DNA of 20,000 nucleotides from positions 170,828-190,827 of the forward strand of contig JYFJ02000087.1 of the NCBI GenBank assembly GCA_000934665.2, in the 5' to 3' direction. The translations under genes and the position numbers were made by a program. Position 1 is the stretch's first letter. Each line of letters opens with the position of its first letter. The notes below the pieces were generated by a model, which saw only the letters and a program-made list of their open reading frames with translations, ran no database searches and had not been told where the DNA came from. This document shows positions 923 through 20,000 of this stretch, one piece after another. The stretch is from Catajapyx aquilonaris. Lineage: Eukaryota.

Positions 923-2759
923 ATGAAGATACCTTGCGCCTGTGTCTCTACTTCCTATCTGATCCTAACCTTGCTGCTTGCCACCATCCTTCGACGAGTG
1001 ACGGCTAAGATATTCGGAAGTTCCTTCTGGAAAGCAATGGCCGACGAGGCCATCTCCGCTGCAGAGCTGTGCGGATGCTGCTACGAACTAATCATCAGTA
1101 AGAAAACCCATTTTAGTTGTTTCCCCACCAAGAACCATCCTGCTCCAAACTATTCCGCCACAAGACATCACAATGCTTAAAGATATTGTCGGCATGCAAA
1201 TATTTGTGTCTTGAATCCTGCTCATTCCAACCGGGTGCCAAAAGAAGAATTAATCCGAGCTTGTTTCTAGTTGCTGACAATTACGGAGTGCTGATGTACG
1301 CAGCGTTCCTATTCTTGTTGACAATATGGTGGAGCATGAATTGGGGTGATGCCACGGCCTGTCCTTACAATCACCTGGAGGACTACCTTGAAGGCAAGAC
1401 TGACATTAAGTCTGTGATACTCAAAATCGCAGCAGAAATAGCCGGGGGACTTCTGGTCTTCAGGTGATTGCCAACATTTACTGTCCCACTAGTAGGCTAG
1501 GTGGTTAACACGTGTCCTTTTTAGGTACGTCCAATTTTTGTGGAAGCTGGAATATGCAGAGACACACAAAGGTCGAGCGTTTGAAGACTGCACAGCAGAT
1601 TTGCAGGTAAGCGATGTTAATTTTAGCTTGAAAGAGATACTTATGGTAGCAGCTGGTTCTTGGCCAAGGAGTCGAGCCTCAAGGTTTCCCTCTTTGGGAC
1701 CTTCAAAGCTCAGCAATTTGTCCTTTTAGTCGCTTATATATAGCGAGAATCTCAAATATTCTAAGTAAATTGCAACAATTTATTCCACTTTGCCTTTAAA
1801 AATTGTGCTGAGAGGAAGGATGCGAGTTATTATGTCTATAGCATGTCCCGCTGCTTATTATTAATGCGAAATACTGGTACAGTACACAGCAGGTAATGTT
1901 ACAATCTGGTTTTCTCTTACGATCCCAAGTGCTCCTTGGGTGCAACAATGGGGGGTGGGAATGTTTAGTGGCTCAGTGGCACGTATTTAGTGTCGTAATA
2001 ATGCTACTTCAGAAGCAAGTGGGTGGTGATGGATGTTCACAAACAAATGCAGCCAAGTTGTCTTTGGCCATATTTCACTATGATGGAATGAGATGTCAGT
2101 GCACCCAGACGTGCGACAACCTTCTCACAACACTGCAGACCCGACCATTTAGCAAGACATAACCAGAATAGTTGTCGGCTAACCTTGCCAATGTCATCAA
2201 ATCCACAAATAATAACAATTACTGTAATTGACAGGTAGCAGCCCTCTATGGAGCTCTGGTAGAATGCATAGCCACTTGTCTATGTCGCCTTGCGTCGAGG
2301 GCAATCGAAGAAGAGGAGCCTCAGAGTGCAGCAGCCATAGATTCATTCATATCTACGGCTCTGGTGGTGGCAGGTATGAGGACATACACTTCTGTTGGTC
2401 TCGTTCTCTTGATACATTGTCTCGTAAAAGTTTACATGCTGCATTCATGTTAAGGAACGTGTAGCCAGTGTAATTACGGAGAAAGAGAAATGGTGGCGCC
2501 AACATTTTGACGAGGTTTCTAACCCGTTATATTCTATTTCCATTCAGCTTTCAACTACTCAGGAGGATACTTCAACCCAGTTCTGGCCACCTCCCTCAAG
2601 TTCGGGTGCAAGGGGAACACAACAGTGGAGCACCTCGGTGTCTACTGGCTGGGTTCAATACTAGGATCGCTAGTCTCGGTCTACCTGTACAGGGTGCCTA
2701 TTATTCGAAACGCACTTCGGAGGCCTTTCGTTCCTTTCAGTAGGCTCAAGACAGCGTAA
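923..2759 (+). CDS. Aqp12L: Unorthodox aquaporin (superaquaporin, AQP11/AQP12-like), 5 coding exons, 266 aa
   Basis: Exons 923-1097, 1271-1463, 1525-1606, 2235-2373, 2548-2759 are all GT-AG, join in frame (801 nt) and end at TAA. The protein has AAELCGCCYELIIIADNYG, WWSMNWGDATACPY (loop B CPY at 1360-1368), HKGRAFEDCTADLQ, and SGGYFNPVLATSLKFGC (loop E NPV at 2574-2582, with the superaquaporin Cys 9 residues after the box), followed by HLGVYWLG. These match arthropod Aqp12-like channels. Confidence 0.95.
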
Positions 2760-3063
2760 AAAGACCGCATCGCCTTTGAAACGCCTAAGTGCTAAATACT
2801 CAATGATGTACCTGTTATGCGTACAATTACACGTTAATTGTCACATGTTGCTTGTTGGTAAAATATATTATTCTCTAAAATACAGCTTGTGTTTATTCTG
2901 ACTTCCTAATCTGTCACATGTTACCACAATATTGATCATGAAGCACAACATTCATTGTTACAATCACCTAGGCCATAAGCAGTTGTTTACACGACGTGTT
3001 ACACGACGTGTGAGTCCTAAATCACCCTCAAAAAAAAATCGGCGCTCCTCACCCGGGTCAGCC

Positions 3064-4389
3064 ATGAACTCGCTCGTGGTGTCTTTCGGGTTCTTGTCCC
3101 TGACGGTCCTGATCTCCAAGATGTTGGTCACCATAATTAGAAGGAACATCACTGACACAACTGTGAACAGACTCGCCTGCGAAGTCATCCAGACTGCGGA
3201 AGTCTGCGCCTGTCTCGCCGAAGTCGCAACAAGTACGCGCAATAAAAAGATGAGGGTCATTGACACAATCACGAAGCCAACTGGAGTTCAATCAACCTCT
3301 GGTCTCTTTCAGTAAGCACAGTCAGTGTCCCTTCGTCCCTGATAGCCCTGTTCTTGGTGGACTTCTGGTGGCAAATGCACCCACAGAGGGAGTCCTCACC
3401 TGCTGTCCAGATTGACGCTTTCCTACAAGGCCGACAGAACCTGACGGACATGGCGTTGGTCATATTCTCCGAACTCATTGGAGCCTTCGCAGCTCTAGCG
3501 TGAGTACTAATTGTCTCAAAATATCCAGATGTGCTTGTAACAATTGCAAAATCCGTTACAGATACATCCACTACTACTGGAATTTGCAACTGGCGTCTTC
3601 CCACGCAGGATTGAAATCCTCTTGCGTTCATGACGGTATGAAGGTAAGGAATCATGTAATTGTGTCTGTAGTTATGCCATGCTGAGATTAGGTTTTACAA
3701 ACTGTGCAGGTACCAGTGTTGTACGGATTTCTGGTAGAGTTTTTCGGCACATTCTTTCTAGAGATGTGCTCTGGCGCAAATGAGGGGACTCGTCACAAGA
3801 GCGCCGAAGCACTCAGGTCGTTGTGTGTGACAGCTGCATTCTTCGCAGGTAAAATGTCTCTACGGGCTATCAATGACATCAATTCAACTGGACCCGATCT
3901 ACTATTTGGTGTGTGCATATCAACCAAGCAGTGGACCAGGTCTAGACCAGGATTGCCAGATAGCCTTAGTTGATTTGGCTCCACAAATCTTTGTAATCTA
4001 GACCGGGTCCAGTTTCATGTGCATATGAACCAAACAGTGGACCAGGTCTAGACCGGATTGCCTCAGTTGCTTTGGCTCCGCCAATCAGTCAATCTAGACC
4101 GGGTCCAGTCTTCCTTCTGGTGGTGTGATGGCCCTAGAAGGCATCATGTAACCAGTAGTCTAATGGTTTCTTTTAATCGTCAGGCATGAACCTGAGCGGT
4201 GGCTTCTACCATCCGATAGTGGCCTTCTCCCAGTGCTTCGGCTGCAAGAGCCACACCTCTGAAGAGCACTTCATGGTCTACTGGGCAGGGCCAATTCTGG
4301 GCTGCATGCTGGCCACTGAAGCTCGCAAGTACCAGACAGTCAAAGATATCTTCGAGTGGCCTTTCGCCTTACATGTCAAAGTTGAATAA
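3064..4389 (+). CDS. Divergent tandem paralog of the AQP12-like aquaporin, 5 coding exons, 260 aa
   Basis: Exons 3064-3232, 3313-3499, 3562-3643, 3710-3848, 4184-4389 are all GT-AG and join in frame (783 nt) with no stops. Intron phases match the upstream gene (1,2,0,1) and exons 3 and 4 have identical lengths (82 and 139 nt). It retains TAEVCAC, FWW, SELIGA, LYGFLVE, SGGFYHPIVAFSQCFGC and EHFMVYWAGPILG. Confidence 0.9.
3864..4134. repeat. Intronic repeat/MITE-like element with an internal ~100-bp tandem duplication and inverted motifs
   Basis: Two diverged direct units (~3912-4013 and ~4018-4109) both start TGTGCATAT..AACCAA.CAGTGGACCAGGTCTAGACC and end TCTAGACCGGGTCCAGT. That end is inverted relative to ACTGGACCCGATCTA at 3887-3901. 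Weak outer termini GGGCTATCA (3864) / TGATGGCCC (4134) suggest a Harbinger-like MITE, but the boundaries are uncertain. Confidence 0.6.
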
Positions 4390-4884
4390 GTTGGAGTAGA
4401 CCGACTTGGTTTCAGAGGAGTGCGAGTGATTGAAAGATAGTGACGAGTGATTCAAGATTGAGCGGAGGGATTCATGGCTGAACACCGGTATCAAAATTGT
4501 AAATGTGAAGCAATATATTACTTCAAACTCTTGTTCTTTCATAGATGTCAGTTTCCAAAAACAAAGCTGTGGATATGTGGGTTTCTTACCACAACAGCTT
4601 TGGGTTCGTTTTACGAAGTCCTTGCTTTCTTTAGTTTAAATGTAAAAATCCGGAGTCCATTTTTTTGGTTCGTGTTCAAAGACAGCCATGAGGTCAGAGC
4701 TACCGCCATACAATATTGAAAGAAATTAAATTATCGCAGGCTACTAGCGTGGCCTATACCTGTTGACATTTCAAACTTGCTAACACTCTGACCGCTTTAT
4801 CTCAGCTCTTTCCCTAGTTTGCAATCAGTTGTTTCGAAAGGGCCTTACCATATTGATTTACTTTCCTTTTTTTTGCCACAAATA

Positions 4885-6778: not shown

Positions 6779-9700
6779 TTATGACGGAGAAAACACTCCA
6801 CTGGCTCCACGTGGGCTACGTATTCCACTCAGTGACAAATGGCCATTGCCCATAGATGTAGCTCCATAGCTGAACAACATTGGGAAGTACTGAATCCGTC
6901 CACCAGACCACACCTGCAATTAGCAAGGCAATGATAAGTAGCAACCGACAACAAACACAGTTCTAAATGCTTACCACAGCAAGAAGGGCTCCATTTTTAT
7001 AGTCTTGCTGAAAGGTGACAGTCACAGGATATTCATCTTTCTGTCCTTGGATGAAGCCGCTACCCAAGAAACCAATTTAATTTGACAGGATAACTACTGT
7101 ACCATTTCAAAGATGGCACTTTTTATAGAAACAATAACACGTGATTCATTAAATATTTTAAAATTAAATAATAATGCTTTTTCATACCACCCTTCTGCCA
7201 AAACACTCGAGCCCAATAAGGGCAAAATATTATTGATTCAACCAGTAAATGGTACAGTGCTGGACATATTAGCCATCGCTGAATGTTTTTTTCCGGCGGC
7301 GGAGGCGGCGGTGTTACCTGGCAACCCTGTCTGGCGGGCCAATTCAAACATCAGCCCATGGAGAGCGCTTCCATTGTTGCCACTGTTTACAAATCGAGTG
7401 AGTGACGCGGACGACCCAGCCACAGGTCTCTTCTGCCTGCGCACTCACTCACTCGATTTGTAAACAGTGGCAACAATGGAAGCGCTCTCCATGGGCTGAT
7501 GTTTGAATTGGCCCGCCGGACAGGGTTGCCAGGTAACGCCGTCGCCGCTGCCGGAAAAAAACATTCAGCGACGGCTAATATGTCCAGCACTGTACTGGTG
7601 TCACAAACATTTAAATATCTCACTGAAACAATAATATAAGTGTCCACTTACCAAGGGGTTACTTGCAGTACAGGGGATGTCTTGGTCCTAAATAAGGCAA
7701 CGAGGGTACTCTCCCTGAAGCATACTGCTAGCCTCTCACCTGACGGATCCCAGGCCATGTCTAAAACAGAGCCACCAACCAGACAACCATACCCAGCGTC
7801 CACCAGGGCCAAGTCGGCCACTGGTATTGCTGCTTTGGCCCCTCCCCCTTCAGACCTGTCCTCGTGTGGAAAAATGAGTGCATATATCAAAGGATCATTT
7901 GCAGTGGCAAAAAGTAATGTGGAGCCACAAGGACTCCAGCAGGCAGCGCGCAAGTGGCCCTCCACAGTGCTCCACCGCTCGTGTGTCCAGCTATGTGACT
8001 CCCAAACACGAAACACGGAACTAGGGGTTGCTGACAAGAGTCGTCTCCCATCCTGGGACCAGGTCAGGTATGACACGCCGCCACCACCAACCCTTGTCAT
8101 TGGGACACTTCGCTCAGTTGATGCCTCCCACACCACCATGGTTTTATCCAAGGCTGATCCAGTAACCAACAACTTTCCATCAGGGTGCCAACTAAGAGTG
8201 CTCACTGGTGAATGCCCACTGCGGGTGAGGAGTGTGACACAGGTGGAAGACGGGCGTGTCACAACAGAGTTGGGGTCAACATGCCAGAGAAGTATGCCTT
8301 CCCGGCATCCAACTGCAAGCTCTGAGGCAGACAAAGGACGCCATGCCATGCAAGTGACGTCTCGCTGTTGCCGGTGCTTTAGGACTGGAACTAGTGAGGA
8401 GTGCAGGGTGTAGACATGAACAGAGTCGTCACGCAAAGCCACAGCCATCTTTGTCGAGTGCGGATGCCAGGCGAAACTGCGGACTGGGCTTGAGGGCCAG
8501 TCACGCACGTGGCCAAACTCCAAGGACAAAGCTTCAGGAGACATCTAAAAAACAAAGGACACATAGCAGTCATCATTTGAAGTGAATAAGTCAGTCAGTT
8601 AGGTCATGCCCCTCAAAGCTAGGGAGTTGCCAACAGTCACAGGAAACTAGTTAGCCATATGACCATAGCTTTACACTGTTATACACACCATTAGATGTGG
8701 ATAGAGTGATGTATGTAGCCTCTGTGCCCAGCGAAAAAAGCTCAGCGCCTTCTGTGCAAACCATGACACAGCGCTTGGAACATCACCTTGAGCAAGTTCT
8801 TCCAGTGCTGGGATCATTCCAATCTCATACCTGAAAGGCAATCATTCAAGCAATTCAGAAACAAACAAAAAGGTGTAATGTATCAAAAGAGCATGACTAA
8901 CAGCAAACTGACTAGTACTGTACCACCAAGTATTCAGCTCAAGAGAGCAGAAAGAGAAAGACATTGTCATGATTATTTCCTGTCTTCTTTTTCTCTTTAT
9001 ACCATCATTACTCCATCTGCCCTATCTATGTATACCAGGGCAAGTCAACAAAGAATGAGAAGGAATTTATTTTTCGCGGAATACGTTAAGCAGGGTCCAG
9101 GTTGATATTGTGTTTTTCGAGTTAGTCCCCATTGAGTTATATGCACTTGGCCCAACACTTCTGGCAGTTGTGGAAGACATGCCAGAACCCCTTTTTTTGA
9201 CATCGTCTTCAGAACCACCTTCTTCATAACGGCTGTTGATGATCCAAAACGGTGGCCCCGCAGTACCAATTTCAGACAAGGGAACAGAAAGCAGTGCAGG
9301 GAGCTAGGTCCGGGCTGTATGGCACACATTCGATGTTTCGTTGGGTCAAATATTGGGCAACAACATTGGCGACATGTAGCCATGCAGCAGGATGCAGCTC
9401 AGGACGCTTTCGTCGGATGTGTTCGGCCAGGACCTTCAAAACTGCCACGTAATACTTATCAGTGACTGTTGTATGCAGGGACACCTCATACTGGTAAACC
9501 ATTTCCCGGATTTCGAAGAAGGTAATGGTCATTGCCTTTCCTGCTAACTGAACAACCTCGGCCTGAATTGGGTTATTTTCAGACTGAGCTCGCCTGTTTG
9601 CATTCGGGATCTTAGTGGTGAAGCCAACTCTAAACACCTGTAATGATGGAATTCTGGCAGGCCTTGCCATACTCCGCTACCAGACGCTCTCTAACAATGC

Positions 9701-10586: not shown

Positions 10587-12160
10587 ATGAAGCTCACCAC
10601 CAACAGGACTCTCTACTGCTACCTGGCTCTCACACTATGGATATTCATCGTGGTGGCCGGTCAGTGCACTTGCCGTACTCACTGGTATGCAGCGCTGAAT
10701 CATGATTGTGTCTTGCTGCAGGTCTGTACCGATTCATGTACAGGGATGCCCTCCTGTCCACCCCGCATCCTGCCAGCCGACCCACTCTGGACAGCTCCAT
10801 CTTGAAGCCTTTTCTGCGGTCGGGAGGACCAGTTAGCACCAAGAGGGTGGCTAAGCTGTGTAATGAGCCGGACAGGATATCGGTTGGGTCAGAAGGGGAC
10901 GTTCATACCAATTACACCTTGGAAGGGGTGGTTGTGCTTTTTAGGCATGGTGACCGGGGGCCTTTGTCGCACGTGCGCAACATCAGCTCCATACATTGCT
11001 CCGGGCACTATGATCCAATGCTGCCTCCATATTGGAGCTACTTGCAAAATGCGTCGAGAGATCCTGACTTTCTGCGGTTCCTCGGACCGTTCCAGACGTT
11101 TCCGTTGGCACCTGAGCATGATGAGTGTGCGCTTGGGCAATTGACACGACTGGGGGTGTCGCAACTGCTACGTACTGGAGAGGTGTTGCGTGAAGCGTAC
11201 CGCTCCCGGCTACCTACATGGCCACCTGTTACGGTCACGTACAGCACCAGGTATCGACGCACATTCCAGAGTGCACTGGCATTCCTCTATGCTCTGCTGG
11301 GGCCAGCCCACGTCACAATGGTGGCCCTGCGTGAATCACAGGCATTGAGCTTCTGCTTTGATGACTGCGTTTGCCCTGCAATTGAATCGCTGCGACGTCG
11401 CTTCAACAGAAATGCTGCGCAGTACCTCCGATCACATCCAGCCGTGCATGCCTTGGTTCGCTCCTTAGCTGCAGCCATTTTTGACCATGGTGACCATGCA
11501 TCCGATATACAGAATCCACGTGTGGTGGAAGATGCATTGTTAGCATACCTTTGCCACAATGCACCACTCCCATGTGTGACTCTAGGCACGTGCATTAACA
11601 TGGAACACGTCAACAACCTACTGGCATACAACGAGTGGGAATCGAAGCAACATGTCAAGAGCAAGCCATTGGTCCGAAGTTTTGTGCTGCAGTCGTACGG
11701 ACTGGTGCGAAACATCCTGCAACACCTGCTGAGAATGATGTCTGATGCAGATGTTCCACGAGTCATCGCTTACTCTGGACATGACAAGACCATGCAATAC
11801 CTGATGTTCTCAATGGGCGTTTCAGATGGTTCCTTGCCTCCGTATGCATCCAGGCTTGTGGTCGAGCTATACCGGCACGGGGCTGCCTCACATCCTGACC
11901 GCTTCTACTTCCGAGTGGTGTACAATGGGCGGGACGTTACCTCCAGGGTTGCTTTCTGTCGACGCACTGCATTCCCTGTCATGGGGGACCTCAACATTGT
12001 TGCACCTGACGAGAGGCGAAGACAGGCATACCTTTGCAGGATCGAGAACATTGTGAGGTTCCTACATGACGACTACTTTCAACTATTCAATGGCACCAAC
12101 TTCAAGGATGTGTGCTTTCCTAATGGATTCGCAATGCCGACGAGATTTACTGTGCTTTAG
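10587..12160 (+). CDS. PXYLP1: 2-phosphoxylose phosphatase 1 / ACPL2-like histidine acid phosphatase, 2 coding exons, ~503 aa
   Basis: Exon 1 10587-10659 encodes MKLTTNRTLYCYLALTLWIFIVVA, a type II membrane anchor (an in-frame upstream ATG at 10536 is an alternative start). A 62-nt GT-AG intron is followed by exon 2 10722-12160. Catalytic RHGDRGP and SGHD motifs are present, plus GQLTRLGVSQLLRTG, YSTRYRRTFQSALAFL and PPYASRLVVELY. Confidence 0.88.
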
Positions 12161-14660: not shown

Positions 14661-17351
14661 TCAGATTCCTCCTCCTGTCCCAACCTCTCCAAAAACAAGT
14701 CTCTTGTATGTCGCATTCATCTGCTCCAAGAATATGAATGTGAGGACTGTGTGAGGCCCAAGTCTGGCATAATATGGTGTGAACCCTTTCCAAAGGGAGA
14801 AGAACCCTTCGTGTCGAATGACCTTGCTCAGAACATCCATAGCTCCTCTGTACTCTGGCTTCCCGTCAATGATCTTCATGTTCTGCACCCTGCAATTTGG
14901 AAAGGTGCATGCTGAGTCAACATCTCGTGATGCCTGCAACTAATTTAGCTCCTACGGCACAAAGATATGACATAACCCGTGCAATAGGAATTAATCTCGC
15001 CCAAGGATGCACACCGTAGTTTAACTCACAGTTTGTTATGCATTATATTTGTCTCTCCCAGTGCAATGATACAGGGAGGTACAATAAATGAATGACTGAC
15101 TGATTGATGGTTAATTAACATAACTTCCATCCTTTTTATGAAGCATTACATGATATTTAAATATCATTGCCACATCTGGACTTCCTGACAGATCAGAAAG
15201 GGCGCAAAGTTTTGGCGCACATGAACTCACCTAGTTTTCGCAATGTCTACAGGCATGGAGGCAGCCGTAGTGATAAGTCCCGAGATCATGCTGCTGCAAA
15301 AGTGAAGAAAGATTCCCTCCCTGAAGTACCCAGTGTTAAACAATATCTGCTTAGCCTGAGAATAGGACGCCAACTGAGCCGCATTGACCACCATTGCACG
15401 TCCCATGGTAGGAAGGGTTCCTCGCCACAACGTAGCCACTCCTTCCTCCTTGGCCATCCTCGCCAGAGCATTGACCACTCCAGTGTAGTTTCTCCTCTGC
15501 TCTGGGGGTAGCCTCCCATCTGCAGTCATCCGGATCAGGCACACCTCGGCAGGAGTGCCCACAAAGGCACCTGCACATCCAGCCGCCATTCCCAAACCAG
15601 CCTTCATGGCAAAATTGGGTGGCTGTCCTTGCGGGCCTGAGAACTGCTCAAACAAATAAGTGTACACACCAAGACGTGTGGTGGTGTAGGTGGCTTGTCT
15701 CAACAGCCCTGCAGAGAGGCCACGATACAGGCCAGACACACCCTCGTTCTTGACCGTCTCCTGGATGACCCTTAAGCTGGTCTTCCGCTCACCCTTCGTG
15801 CCCTCACCACTCAGCTGCATGCGGTTTTTAATCAGATCAAGTGGCTGGACAAATAGCGTTGCTGCCATCCTAGTGGAATAAGACATGTTACATAAGATGG
15901 AGGTGTTTACCCATGCGCTGAATCTATTTCTAGACTCCCCACTCAAAACACTTCATTGCAATCTTGGAACGCAAGTCTGCAGGGCTGTTCATTCTCAGAG
16001 TCAAATATTTTTCAACCGTAATCTAAGGCAAGTGAACCATGCAATTTTTCCATCTCAATGACCACACCCTGAATACAAAGCCTTGCACCTTATCTACCAG
16101 TGACACAGGGTGTAAATTTTGCATCAAGTTTTACCACATTGTAAAACCATGGTGTAAAAATGAGACTCACCTGGGGATAAATTTGCAAATAAAGGCGCAC
16201 CTTTTAAGTAAAAAAAAAACAACAATATACAAGTGCACCTTTTTTTTTTTTGTAAATTCAACCCTGGTTTAAAAATAATATGATATCCTAAATGTTTTAA
16301 GATGTAAACAAGAGCAATTTATTCCTACTAAATTACACCCAGGATCACCATTCAAGGCCACCATATGGCTCAATACTATAGGCACTATTGATGTCTATGA
16401 ACAGGCCTTCCTCCTGATATAAGCAGTGCAACTTTCCTGTGCTAAATTCATTCTGTACAGTAACAAAAGAGACAAAAAGACACCGTCATTTAATTAATTT
16501 CCAGCAGTATGTCACTTGCACTTTGCACAATTAAATACCTCTAAGAAAATGTGATAGCGTGCAAAAAATTTGGCATGAATTGTGAATTCACAAGCTACAA
16601 CACAGTCATTGTGTTAGTTTTTCATTTACTCATGAGAAAAATATTTAAAAAATTAAACAAAACAAAATTAACCCTGGAACGATAACGTGGCATCTTTTAG
16701 GACCCCAAAGGAATTAAAATGCATTGAAATGATAATTACACTGAACTTTTGCCATTTTTTAAAAGTGTATAACAGTAAGTGCATGTTTATTTTGAATTCG
16801 CGATCATTTTAGGCATTGTTCAAATAATTATTACATTATAGTCAATACATGGCAAAGTATTATATAAAAATTAATAAAAATTAAAATATGGATGGGGTCC
16901 TAAAAGACCCCACGTCACCGTTCCAGGGTTAGGACGTAGCTGAGGTAAAACACTGCCAATACAAACAATAAAATACTATTTTAATTACTGGTATGCACTG
17001 TATGTGGCAGGTCACATATCAGGTGCTTTTACACTAAAAGACAAGTGCACTTGAGACGTGGTTTCAATAGCATGTCGCATTTACATCAAGGTGACTGCGG
17101 CTGGAGAATGCCTGTCTCTCTAGTGAAACTCAGCGACAGGTCTCCATTTGCACGCGACTGTTTCCCTTATTTTTAAATAATCATGATGCAAATGCCACGA
17201 CCCCCGTAGCATGACCCCATTTTTTCTCTCTCTCTCTCTCTCTCCATCATCCCGCACCCTTTGATACTGACCCCGCAGACCCTCCGAAGACAAACTTGAT
17301 AGCGTTGGGTATGGCCTTTGGTGCAGCAGCCGGTGCTCCCTTCCCAGCCAT
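14661..17351 (-). CDS. SLC25A11: Mitochondrial 2-oxoglutarate/malate carrier, 3 coding exons, 315 aa
   Basis: Minus-strand exons 17351-17272, 15869-15231, 14889-14661 are GT-AG and in frame (948 nt). Three carrier signatures (PLDLIKNRMQ, PAEVCLIRM, PVDIAKTRVQ) and OGC-specific GLSAGLLRQATYTTTRLG, RAMVVNAAQLASYSQAKQ and WKGFTPYYARLGPHTVLTFIFLEQMN are present. Confidence 0.97.
16672..16928. mobile_element. piggyBac-like MITE in SLC25A11 intron 1
   Basis: TTAA|CCCTGGAACGATAACGTGGCATCTTTTAGGACCCC ... GGGGTCCTAAAAGACCCCACGTCACCGTTCCAGGG|TTAG: 35-bp TIRs with 4 mismatches, CCC/GGG termini, TTAA-type target (right copy mutated) and an AT-rich interior. Confidence 0.85.
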
Positions 17352-18045: not shown

Positions 18046-18270
18046 TTGCAACACAAAAAAAGGTCAGATAATCCCAGGAGTAATTAAAACATGAATGAAA
18101 CAAACAAAAAATCAAACATATAACGTAGACTAAGAAATTTTCTAACAAATAGCGAAGCATTTATCTTTTACATACACACTCTACTGTACTGCATTTACAA
18201 TTTAACTAAGGCAATCTGAAACAAATGCTTAGTGCATTATAGTATTTAATGAGAAAAATATATTTATTGT

Positions 18271-20000
18271 TTGGAGAAAAGACTAAAAAACTCCGAGGTT
18301 CGACTTTCCATTGTTAATGTAAGAGGGATTCATAATAAGTGTGATATTGTTAGGAAAGCATTTGTTGATGCTCGTTTAGATATAATGTGCTTGTCTGAGA
18401 CCAAGAAGAAGGGGTGTTCAGTGGGTGATTTCAATGGGCTAACAGGTTTCTGGTCTGGTGTAGATGAAAGGGAGAGGGCTTGTGCAGGTGTTGGTATACT
18501 TATTAGTCCTAAGCTGGTGCACTGTGTGAAAGGATATAGTCAGGTTAGTGAGAGAATAATGTGGGTGAGTCTGAAGGTGGTTAAGACTTGGATTGTGGTT
18601 GTGGCTGTGTATGCACCAGTTGACTCATCTTCGGATGAGGATAAGGAGAGGTTCTGGGATAGCTTAAGTGCTGTGTTGGATGGGTTCAATGGTAATGACA
18701 GGATAATTCTTGCAGGGGATTTTAATTCTTGGGTGGGTGTCTCTCGCCCGGGGTATGAGGGAGTGTTGGGTCGTTATGGGGATGTCAGGGTTAATGGAAA
18801 TGGTGTGAGTTTATTGGATTTATGTGTAGAGAGGGGACTTTATGTGTCTAATACTGTGTTTCCACACAAACGGATTCATCAGTATACTTGGGAGAATAGG
18901 TCATTAGGTCAGAAGTCCTTGATTGACTTTGTAGTGATAGATAATACTGTAGGTTGAGGTCAAAGGTAGTTGATGCTAAGGTGGTTAGAGGTGTAGATGT
19001 TGGTTCTGACCATTACCTGGTTGTCTCTAGGTTAAGGTTAGGTATTGGATGGAGGATGTTTAAGAAAAAACCTGAGGTGGTTGAGAGGATTAAGGTTGAG
19101 CAACTTCCTGCATTCGGTTTGGAATATCAACAGCTAGTTTCTGATAGATTGATAGAAGGGAACAAGACAGCTAAGTCCTTAGAAGAGGGTTGGGATTGTT
19201 TCAAGTCCTCCTTAGTGAGTAGTGCTGTTGATATTTGTGGTATGGCTAAGGTGGGTTGTAAGAAGGGGGATCGTTGGTGGAACGAGGAGGTGGCTAGGGC
19301 AGTTAATCGTAAGAAGGAGGCTTACTTAGGAATGCTGCAGGGTAGTGTCCCTGCAGGGGAGTATAGGTTTTGGAAGCGGGAGGCAGCACGGGTTGTTAGG
19401 GAGAGTAAGAAGCGGGTAGATCTAGAGGAGAGTGAGAGGCTGGAGAAGGCCTTCAAGGAGGATGAGAAGTCTTTTTGGAAGACTGTTAGGAGGTTAAGAA
19501 CTGGCCATGGGGTTAGCGTAGTGGGTGTGAAGGATAAGAAGGGTGACATGCTGTGGGATGGAGGAGAGGCGAAAGGGCGCTGGGGAGAGTATTTTAAGGA
19601 CTTGCTGTCAGCAAGTGATAAGGCCAGTGTAGATGTATCTGTTAGCTTAATTGGGGATGTTGTATCAGCAATCAGGTAATGATGGTTGTGGGGATATTGT
19701 TAAGAAGGAAGTTGCAGCTGCTGCTTTAGGACTTAAACTAGGTAAATCCCCTGGGGTTGATGCTATTTCTTCGGAAATGGTGAGGTGTGGCGGGGGTGAT
19801 GTAGTTACTTTTTTGACTAATTTATGTAGGGTTTCTTTTGATAATGGTGTAGTTCCTAGGGATTGGAGGGATGCTATTATAGTACCTCTGTATAAGGGTG
19901 AGGGAGATGTGTGTGACTGCAAGAATTATCGTGGCATTAGTTTGTTAAGTGTACCAGGGAAAGTGTATGCTAAGGTTTTGATAGAAAGAGTTAAGAGGGT
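18271..20000 (+). mobile_element. RTE-clade non-LTR retrotransposon (APE endonuclease plus start of RT), frameshifted, truncated by the window end
   Basis: APE motifs NVRG, CLSETK, VYAP, LAGDFN, IDFV and VGSDH are present, with a frameshift near 18950. The linker contains RWWNEEV and FWKTVR. After a second frameshift near 19670 comes the RT N-terminus GKSPGVDAISSEM...VPRDWRDAIIVPLYKGEGDVCDCKNYRGISLLSVPGKVYAKVL, typical of RTE/BovB-like LINEs. Confidence 0.93.

Follow-up and report, generated by a model that had tools for sequence, protein, structure and literature searches.

Within the aquaporin family, the unorthodox branch is the one least understood. Reports of transport by an invertebrate Aqp12-like channel (Aqp12L) and of a first AQP11 structure date only from 2026 (PMC13673172, PMC13324649). 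Human AQP11, described as the only solved member, is a homotrimer whose N-terminus bears an additional helix, H0, and which has a disulfide between C155 and C227 that joins loops C and E; its pore is reported to be wide and hydrophobic, with a filter formed by T61, V82, V204, A213, and L219 (PMC13324649). On the arthropod side, Artemia Aqp12L is reported to carry water and H2O2 as well as ammonia and urea and to reside in yolk-platelet membranes (PMC13673172). A further study also describes Aqp12L channels in these membranes and states that yolk platelets seem to be lysosomes in modified form (PMC13344155). Arthropod Aqp12-like channels are described as marked by the box pair CPY/NPV together with a cysteine nine residues after the second box (PMC4539701, PMC8699810), and this cysteine is a named feature of the AQP11/12 type (PMC8699810). 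Duplication within the group has precedents. Lineage-specific Aqp12-like duplications are described in several aquatic arthropods (bioRxiv 10.1101/2022.07.25.501387), and the salmon louse carries a second Aqp12L paralog in one genome (PMC4539701).

The stretch of Catajapyx aquilonaris DNA analyzed here, 20,000 nucleotides in its entirety and called the window below, contains two genes of the same architecture arranged head to tail on the forward strand: gene A, which encodes 266 amino acids, followed by gene B, which encodes 260 (Table 1). A sequence-only reading had proposed gene B as a five-exon, stop-free gene that is invisible as a single open reading frame and yields a spliced product of 260 residues. 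The rebuilt model agrees on each point, and no single open reading frame spans gene B. All eight introns of the two genes obey the GT-AG rule and their phases are common to both genes, as are the lengths of exon 3 (82 nt) and exon 4 (139 nt). The donors of gene B read GTACGC, GTGAGT, GTAAGG, and GTAAAA, and every acceptor ends in AG. The spacer from the stop codon of A to the ATG of B measures 304 bp. Searches of the window with both proteins (tblastn) found no third aquaporin copy, leaving A and B only.

Table 1. Features of the window, with positions counted from its first nucleotide
Feature	Position	Strand	Description
Gene A	923-2759	+	Exons 923-1097, 1271-1463, 1525-1606, 2235-2373, 2548-2759; boxes CPY/NPV; canonical tandem neighbor
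Gene B	3064-4389	+	Five exons; 783 nt, 260 codons plus TAA
Gene B exon 1	3064-3232	+	ATG; N-terminal hydrophobic segment (counterpart of AQP11 helix H0); TM1 with E40, E46, C48, E53; Leu51
Gene B exon 2	3313-3499	+	TM2 with Asp73 (3360-3362); loop B SPA (3396-3404); TM3
Gene B exon 3	3562-3643	+	82 nt; loop C with Cys140 (3623-3625)
Gene B exon 4	3710-3848	+	139 nt; TM4 with E156; TM5 with Phe190 (3839-3841)
Gene B exon 5	4184-4389	+	Loop E HPI (4210-4218); Val205; Cys213 (4243-4245); VYWAGP; TM6; stop TAA
Inverted repeat	7260-7600		Long and near-perfect, found by eye shortly upstream of the exon for Aladin; a probable foldback or MITE-like element
Aladin (AAAS)	7651-8544	-	Single long exon; seven-bladed propeller (PF25460, E 1.2e-125)
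Histidine phosphatase, branch 2	10587-12160	+	Short first exon and 484-codon second exon (PF00328, E 8.1e-25)
Mitochondrial carrier	15230-15952	-	Exon (PF00153, E 8.5e-43)
Non-LTR retrotransposon	18253-19998	+	Endonuclease/reverse-transcriptase open reading frame; runs past the end of the window

The noncoding parts of the pair have features of their own. The start-codon context, TCAGCCATGAA, is the same in A (918-928) and B (3059-3069), in genes otherwise saturated with change. The 12-mer TTACACGACGTG occurs twice in tandem at 2987-3010, about 55 bp upstream of the ATG of B, with two ACGTG cores. This repeat may be a regulatory site within the short spacer. In intron 4 of gene B (3849-4183), a short element with inverted ends (ACTGGACCCGATCTA ... 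TAGACCGGGTCCAGT) is present as a tandem pair, each copy being about 100 bp long. The Logan word depth in this intron rises from about 35 to 249 at 3937-3997, which identifies the element as a genomic repeat. By its sequence it looks like a MITE insertion, and this MITE-like insertion explains why intron 4 exceeds the remaining three introns of B in length.

By its sequence, gene B is a true member of the AQP11/12-type branch. A family HMM built from 44 members, with A and B left out, scores B at 182.8 bits over residues 2-248 and A at 372.8 bits; 487 of 500 shuffled versions of B gave a score with the same model, the highest being 8.1 bits. The link from B to solved structures is transitive, via a family profile that matches both. 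This 32-member profile aligns end to end with human AQP11 (9vxw_A, E 5.2e-39) and matches 36 more solved sequences at E <= 0.01, all of which are aquaporins, AQP4, AQP1, and AQP0 among them. In a Pfam scan covering single exons only, exon 5 of B alone reached 13.3 bits (E 0.074) with PF00230, whose cut-off is 25 bits. None of seven full-length family members reaches that cut-off, so the PF00230 model is weak for the AQP11/12 branch. The Atlas label for exon 5 is "MIP" only.

The conserved landmarks of the family are largely present in B. Cys213 lies nine residues past I204, in a column occupied by cysteine in 82 of the 83 full-length members (81 relatives plus A and B), and the residue that follows HPI is Val205, not an arginine. 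In loop C, Cys140 stands one residue ahead of the aligned column, which holds Val141, and a one-residue insertion follows directly; judged from this alignment, Cys140 is a candidate to pair with the cysteine of loop E. The N-terminal hydrophobic window covers residues 1-27, and the alignment of the profile with AQP11 begins at chain residue 10. Seven of nine family-invariant columns are strictly kept in B, or eight if the loop C cysteine may shift by one residue. Gene A is more conventional. A search with its last exon returned 81 proteins at E <= 0.001, the named ones being insect and crustacean "aquaporin-11/12", and its full-length product is 57-61% identical to its best relatives, which marks the source as an arthropod but puts neither its own protein nor one from a close relative among these matches. 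CPY combined with NPV or NPA occurs in 67 of the 83 full-length members, a pattern that A (CPY/NPV) fits and B (SPA/HPI) does not.

The two pore boxes of gene B both lack the asparagine that begins each half-helix. The codons TCA CCT GCT encode SPA and CAT CCG ATA encode HPI, the proline of each box being kept, and both the pairwise alignment and the two profile alignments set them under CPY and NPV of gene A. The sequence-only reading had placed and read both motifs correctly, down to the loss of every box asparagine. It was equally right about the TM2 aspartate, Asp73 (codon GAC), which distinguishes LFLVDFWW of B from LFLLTIWW of A, and the features that it listed as retained (E40, E46, E53, E156, Cys213, and VYWAGP) were all found. 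It had also allowed that CAT at 4210 might be a sequencing error for AAT. Logan contigs from three DNA runs show 0 differences over 2900-4700 at a word depth of 20.7-35.6, which rules out an assembly slip; the runs share their sample with the likely source of the assembly, and a peculiarity of that individual is possible.

A map of AQP11 residues onto A and B, drawn through the profile alignment, extends the comparison to the rest of the pore. At the filter, T61 corresponds to C53 in A and L51 in B, V204 to V194 and F190, A213 to G203 and G199, and L219 to L209 and V205; V82, which the alignment treats as an insertion, falls between L72 and F73 of A and between L69 and F70 of B. The first-box asparagine N99 corresponds to C89 in A and S85 in B, and the second-box N216 to N206 and H202. 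Of the disulfide cysteines, C227 corresponds to C217 in A and C213 in B, and C155 to C145 in A and, with a one-residue shift, to C140 in B. The placement of Phe190 recurs in an independent alignment to AQP4, where it falls under His201, a filter residue of that channel (PMC13324649). Valine occupies the V204 column in 78 of the 83 members and phenylalanine in two, while leucine at the T61 column and valine at the L219 column are found in B alone.

Asp73 aligns with S86 of AQP11, four residues past V82. It is thus predicted to lie one helical turn below the filter on the same face of TM2, at a site that corresponds to the hydrophobic pore-wall position at the NPA level in AQP1. Threonine fills this column in 67 of the 83 members, and an acidic residue in 3. 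In AQP6, the residue at the matching position, Thr63, is described as adjoining the two asparagines (PMC4150397), and profile alignment combined with helix periodicity would put Asp73 next to His202. The changes in B therefore comprise both pore-center caps, three of the five filter positions (Leu51, Phe190, and Val205), and the TM2 aspartate. An enrichment of changes at the pore was considered, but 6 of 8 pore positions against 39 of 73 other conserved columns is not convincing.

The divergence between the two genes is deep. Their proteins are 30% identical, nucleotide identity at codon positions 1, 2, and 3 is 0.467, 0.548, and 0.347, and pN and pS are 0.485 and 0.742, the latter saturated. 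No intron similarity between A and B is detectable. Saturated synonymous sites and unalignable introns indicate that the B copy is old. Despite this age, B is very probably a real gene maintained by selection. Neutral simulations that carried the coding sequence of A to the observed divergence gave 0 stop-free outcomes in 20,000, and the other five frames of B contain 5-18 stops each. A codon-usage score trained on three neighboring genes gives the coding frame of B +41.3 and that of A +39.1, and the other two frames of B -96.7 and -38.5.

The distribution of changes along the protein is uneven. Measured against consensus columns from 30 arthropod-clade rows, B keeps 56% of the 50 columns that are at least 95% conserved versus 9% of the 64 most variable (Spearman p 2e-07). 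Of the 73 columns at least 90% conserved in the clade, 39 are changed in B versus 3 in A, and those changed in B include the family-invariant glycine of the DNYG turn (Ser61) as well as one deleted tryptophan. In 19-residue windows at a hydropathy of 1.2, A has segments at 179-201 and 223-249, whereas B has none past residue 168; on this measure TM5 and TM6 of B may be weakened. We read the substitution pattern as one of selection under shifted constraints, not of decay.

In a maximum-likelihood (ML) tree of 46 full-length rows, B falls outside a 33-row arthropod clade (clade support 97/89) and joins P0082 (support 100/84), which is also without both asparagines; this join is flagged as two long branches meeting. 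The two are 23% identical, less than B and A, and a sister pairing of A with B is not rejected by an AU test (lnL difference 14.4, p 0.121). On these grounds, an old paralog clade of B and P0082 was rejected. A reduced tree that leaves out nine long rows (P0082, P0088, P0090, P0081, P0041, P0047, P0022, P0054, and P0051) puts B on a branch of 4.7-5.2 changes per site at an unresolved base, with a median branch of 0.35. The branch of B measures 2.12 versus a median of 0.41 in the full tree and 5.23 versus 0.35 in the reduced one, or about 5-15 times the median. A neighbor-joining tree places B with a bootstrap of only 27. The duplication may be old, local, and strongly accelerated, or else B may be an older paralog lost elsewhere. 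Intron positions are uninformative on the date, because many fragments of relatives begin at the same exon 5 boundary.

The search for a B-type ortholog found no relative that matches the last exon of B clearly better than that of A; the largest excess for a family member is 11 bits, in an 88-aa fragment. A word-index search with exon 5 of B gave one candidate, which was not significant. P0002, which has a similar C-terminal tail and an NPI box, was rejected as an ortholog of B on its higher score with A.

How unusual the loop E box of B is can be judged from its relatives. An exhaustive search with exon 5 of B returned 93 matches at E <= 0.001, of which six (P0001, P0024, P0029, P0040, P0050, and P0075) are not aligned over the box. 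In the 87 aligned relatives, the first position of the box is asparagine in 77, histidine in 6, serine in 2, and glutamine in 2. The search with the last exon of gene A supplies 73 further relatives, all with asparagine (63 NPV and 10 NPA), and the named ones are all arthropod. In the full-length set, 78 of 83 members have the loop E asparagine, and the five that lack it are all without the loop B asparagine as well: B itself, P0022 (SPL/HPA), P0088, P0082, and P0090. These counts bear out the earlier claim that the family normally keeps this asparagine.

The concern that HPx boxes might already be common in loop E holds only in part. They are rare (6 of 87, plus two more relatives of one of these), but they do exist elsewhere, and the group P0021/P0033/P0044/P0167/P0168 keeps HPV at 63-69% identity to P0044. 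Its conservation over this range implies that a loop E histidine can be a stable state. As judged by these sequences, a loop E histidine is rare in the family and not unique to B. Relatives that have lost the box asparagine are no closer to the last exon of B than to that of A, and their losses therefore seem to be independent. In the literature, a phrase search for histidine-type boxes found nothing relevant, only plant papers on an "SPA motif", which is a weak negative. Published supplementary alignments may already show Aqp12-like sequences with unusual loop E boxes. The members of the HPV group are Aqp12-like metagenome fragments with a common four-residue insertion after the GC motif; a weak Atlas lead, at 0.84 below the Atlas threshold of 0.9, points to Arthropoda.

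From the earlier interpretation, then, there stand an intact paralog with signs of selective maintenance, a kept scaffold in which the pore-center residues are replaced, and a loop E asparagine that is the family norm; its functional proposals, a pH- or metal-gated channel, an ion-permeable channel, or a silent regulatory subunit, are hypotheses. Gene B encodes a protein that keeps the scaffold, with serine and histidine in place of the pore asparagines, and that probably has altered channel properties. In the mechanism proposed, B would be a long-maintained, very fast-evolving tandem duplicate of the neighboring arthropod Aqp12-like gene, and its product would be an intracellular AQP11/12-type membrane protein, a location suggested by its relatives. 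The parts kept are those that define the fold, namely the additional helix at the N-terminus, the glutamates of TM1 and TM4, the prolines of both half-helices, the candidate cysteine pair of loops C and E, and the VYW-G-P that ends TM6. Ser85 and His202 would cap the two half-helices at the pore center, Phe190 would narrow the pore, and His202 would, in the predicted geometry, face Asp73 to form a titratable pair. In storage organelles that are acidic, such as yolk platelets, conductance or selectivity would then depend on pH or on a bound metal.

This would make B a pH- or metal-dependent, narrower channel, unlike the broad neutral-solute conduit reported for Artemia Aqp12L, a tentative reading that is the likeliest of those considered, although we doubt it slightly more than we believe it. 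A more specific version holds that Ser85, His202, and Asp73 meet at the pore center of a fold without an arginine filter and form a proton- or metal-binding site there, by which a channel for neutral solutes would have become one that conducts cations, protons, or ammonium under pH gating, or else a sensor of metal, in yolk or storage organelles of acidic content. We consider it extremely improbable; if true, it would mean that an ion-handling aquaporin has arisen naturally by tandem duplication.

The same residues could instead close the pore. B might be a non-conducting subunit, plugged by His202, Asp73, and Phe190, that forms an oligomer with A or has a role in trafficking or membrane organization. 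Consistent with this, the pore residues change in a scaffold that is otherwise kept, its cysteine pair included, the filter has phenylalanine in place of the valine found in 78 of 83 members, and the tandem position with its 304-bp spacer makes co-regulation of A and B possible. Burying polar serine, histidine, and aspartate in a closed pore would, however, be costly unless they are paired, and we regard this explanation as unlikely. AQP11 is a homotrimer, so the hetero-tetramers suggested by the sequence-only reading are not to be assumed for A and B. The opposite proposal, that little has changed, takes B to be an ordinary Aqp12-like polytransporter in which serine and histidine still cap the half-helices and hydrogen-bond with permeants, the boxes being near-neutral variants in a fast-evolving duplicate. 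The family offers arguments for it: the loop B asparagine is already dispensable (CPY in 67 of 83 members), Artemia Aqp12L is still reported to move four solutes (PMC13673172), and the loop E asparagine has given way to histidine, serine, or glutamine in 10 of 87 relatives, one histidine group being stable at 63-69% identity. The changes in B nevertheless go beyond the boxes, to three of five filter positions and the TM2 aspartate, and in the ML trees it sits on a branch about 5-15 times as long as the median one; this account, too, seems improbable to us.

It is also conceivable, though very unlikely, that B is a relic, silent or inactivated not long ago, in which the frame is still unbroken. 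About half of the conserved columns are changed (39 of 73), and the 304-bp spacer, which must hold the 3' end of A and the promoter of B, contains no canonical AATAAA, ATTAAA, or TATA-like word. Yet the copy is old and still has its open frame, eight intact splice dinucleotides, and codon usage like that of the genome, with conserved columns preferentially kept; a loss of function would have to be very recent to fit. Expression of the gene together with sensitivity of its product to pH or ions would constitute a clear neofunctionalization after duplication, whereas a silent or A-like B would show only the tolerance of this pore. Gene B is a ready-made natural experiment on the pore-center asparagines in the AQP11/12 branch, for which the adjoining canonical sister A is a built-in control.

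A comparison of gene B with described channels places its closest sequence relatives among the arthropod Aqp12L proteins, represented by Aqp12L1 and Aqp12L2 of the salmon louse and Aqp12L of Artemia franciscana; identity is 29% to phasmid and stomatopod members, near that to gene A. B resembles these proteins in its length, its N-terminal hydrophobic segment, its glutamates, the cysteine nine residues past the second box, and the absence of an arginine after that box. It differs from them in having SPA/HPI in place of the CPY/NPV of the clade and in falling outside the arthropod clade in the ML tree. The salmon louse paralogs are reported to be 61.8% identical and both carry CPY/NPV (PMC4539701), whereas A and B share only 30%. 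Human AQP11 (9vxw) has counterparts in B for helix H0, for the loop E cysteine and, one residue off in the alignment, the loop C cysteine, and for a filter without arginine; its boxes are NPC/NPA, whereas B has no asparagine in either. Its filter T61/V82/V204/A213/L219 contrasts with L51/(L69-F70)/F190/G199/V205 of B, and its S86 with Asp73.

The relatives without a loop E asparagine, P0022 (SPL/HPA), P0088 (HPV), P0011 (HPI), P0082 (SPS), P0090 (SPI/QPM), and the HPV group P0021/P0033/P0044/P0167/P0168, are nearest to B in their boxes, and P0022 has the same pairing of serine with histidine. Full-length identity between these relatives and B is nonetheless 18-23%, and none has an aspartate at the TM2 position. 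Mammalian AQP6 serves as a working analogy only, being a member of the orthodox branch with both NPA boxes intact and related to B only through the superfamily. It is activated by low pH. AQP6 is described as residing in intracellular vesicles and as owing its ion conductance to unusual pore-center residues next to the NPA asparagines (PMC4150397).
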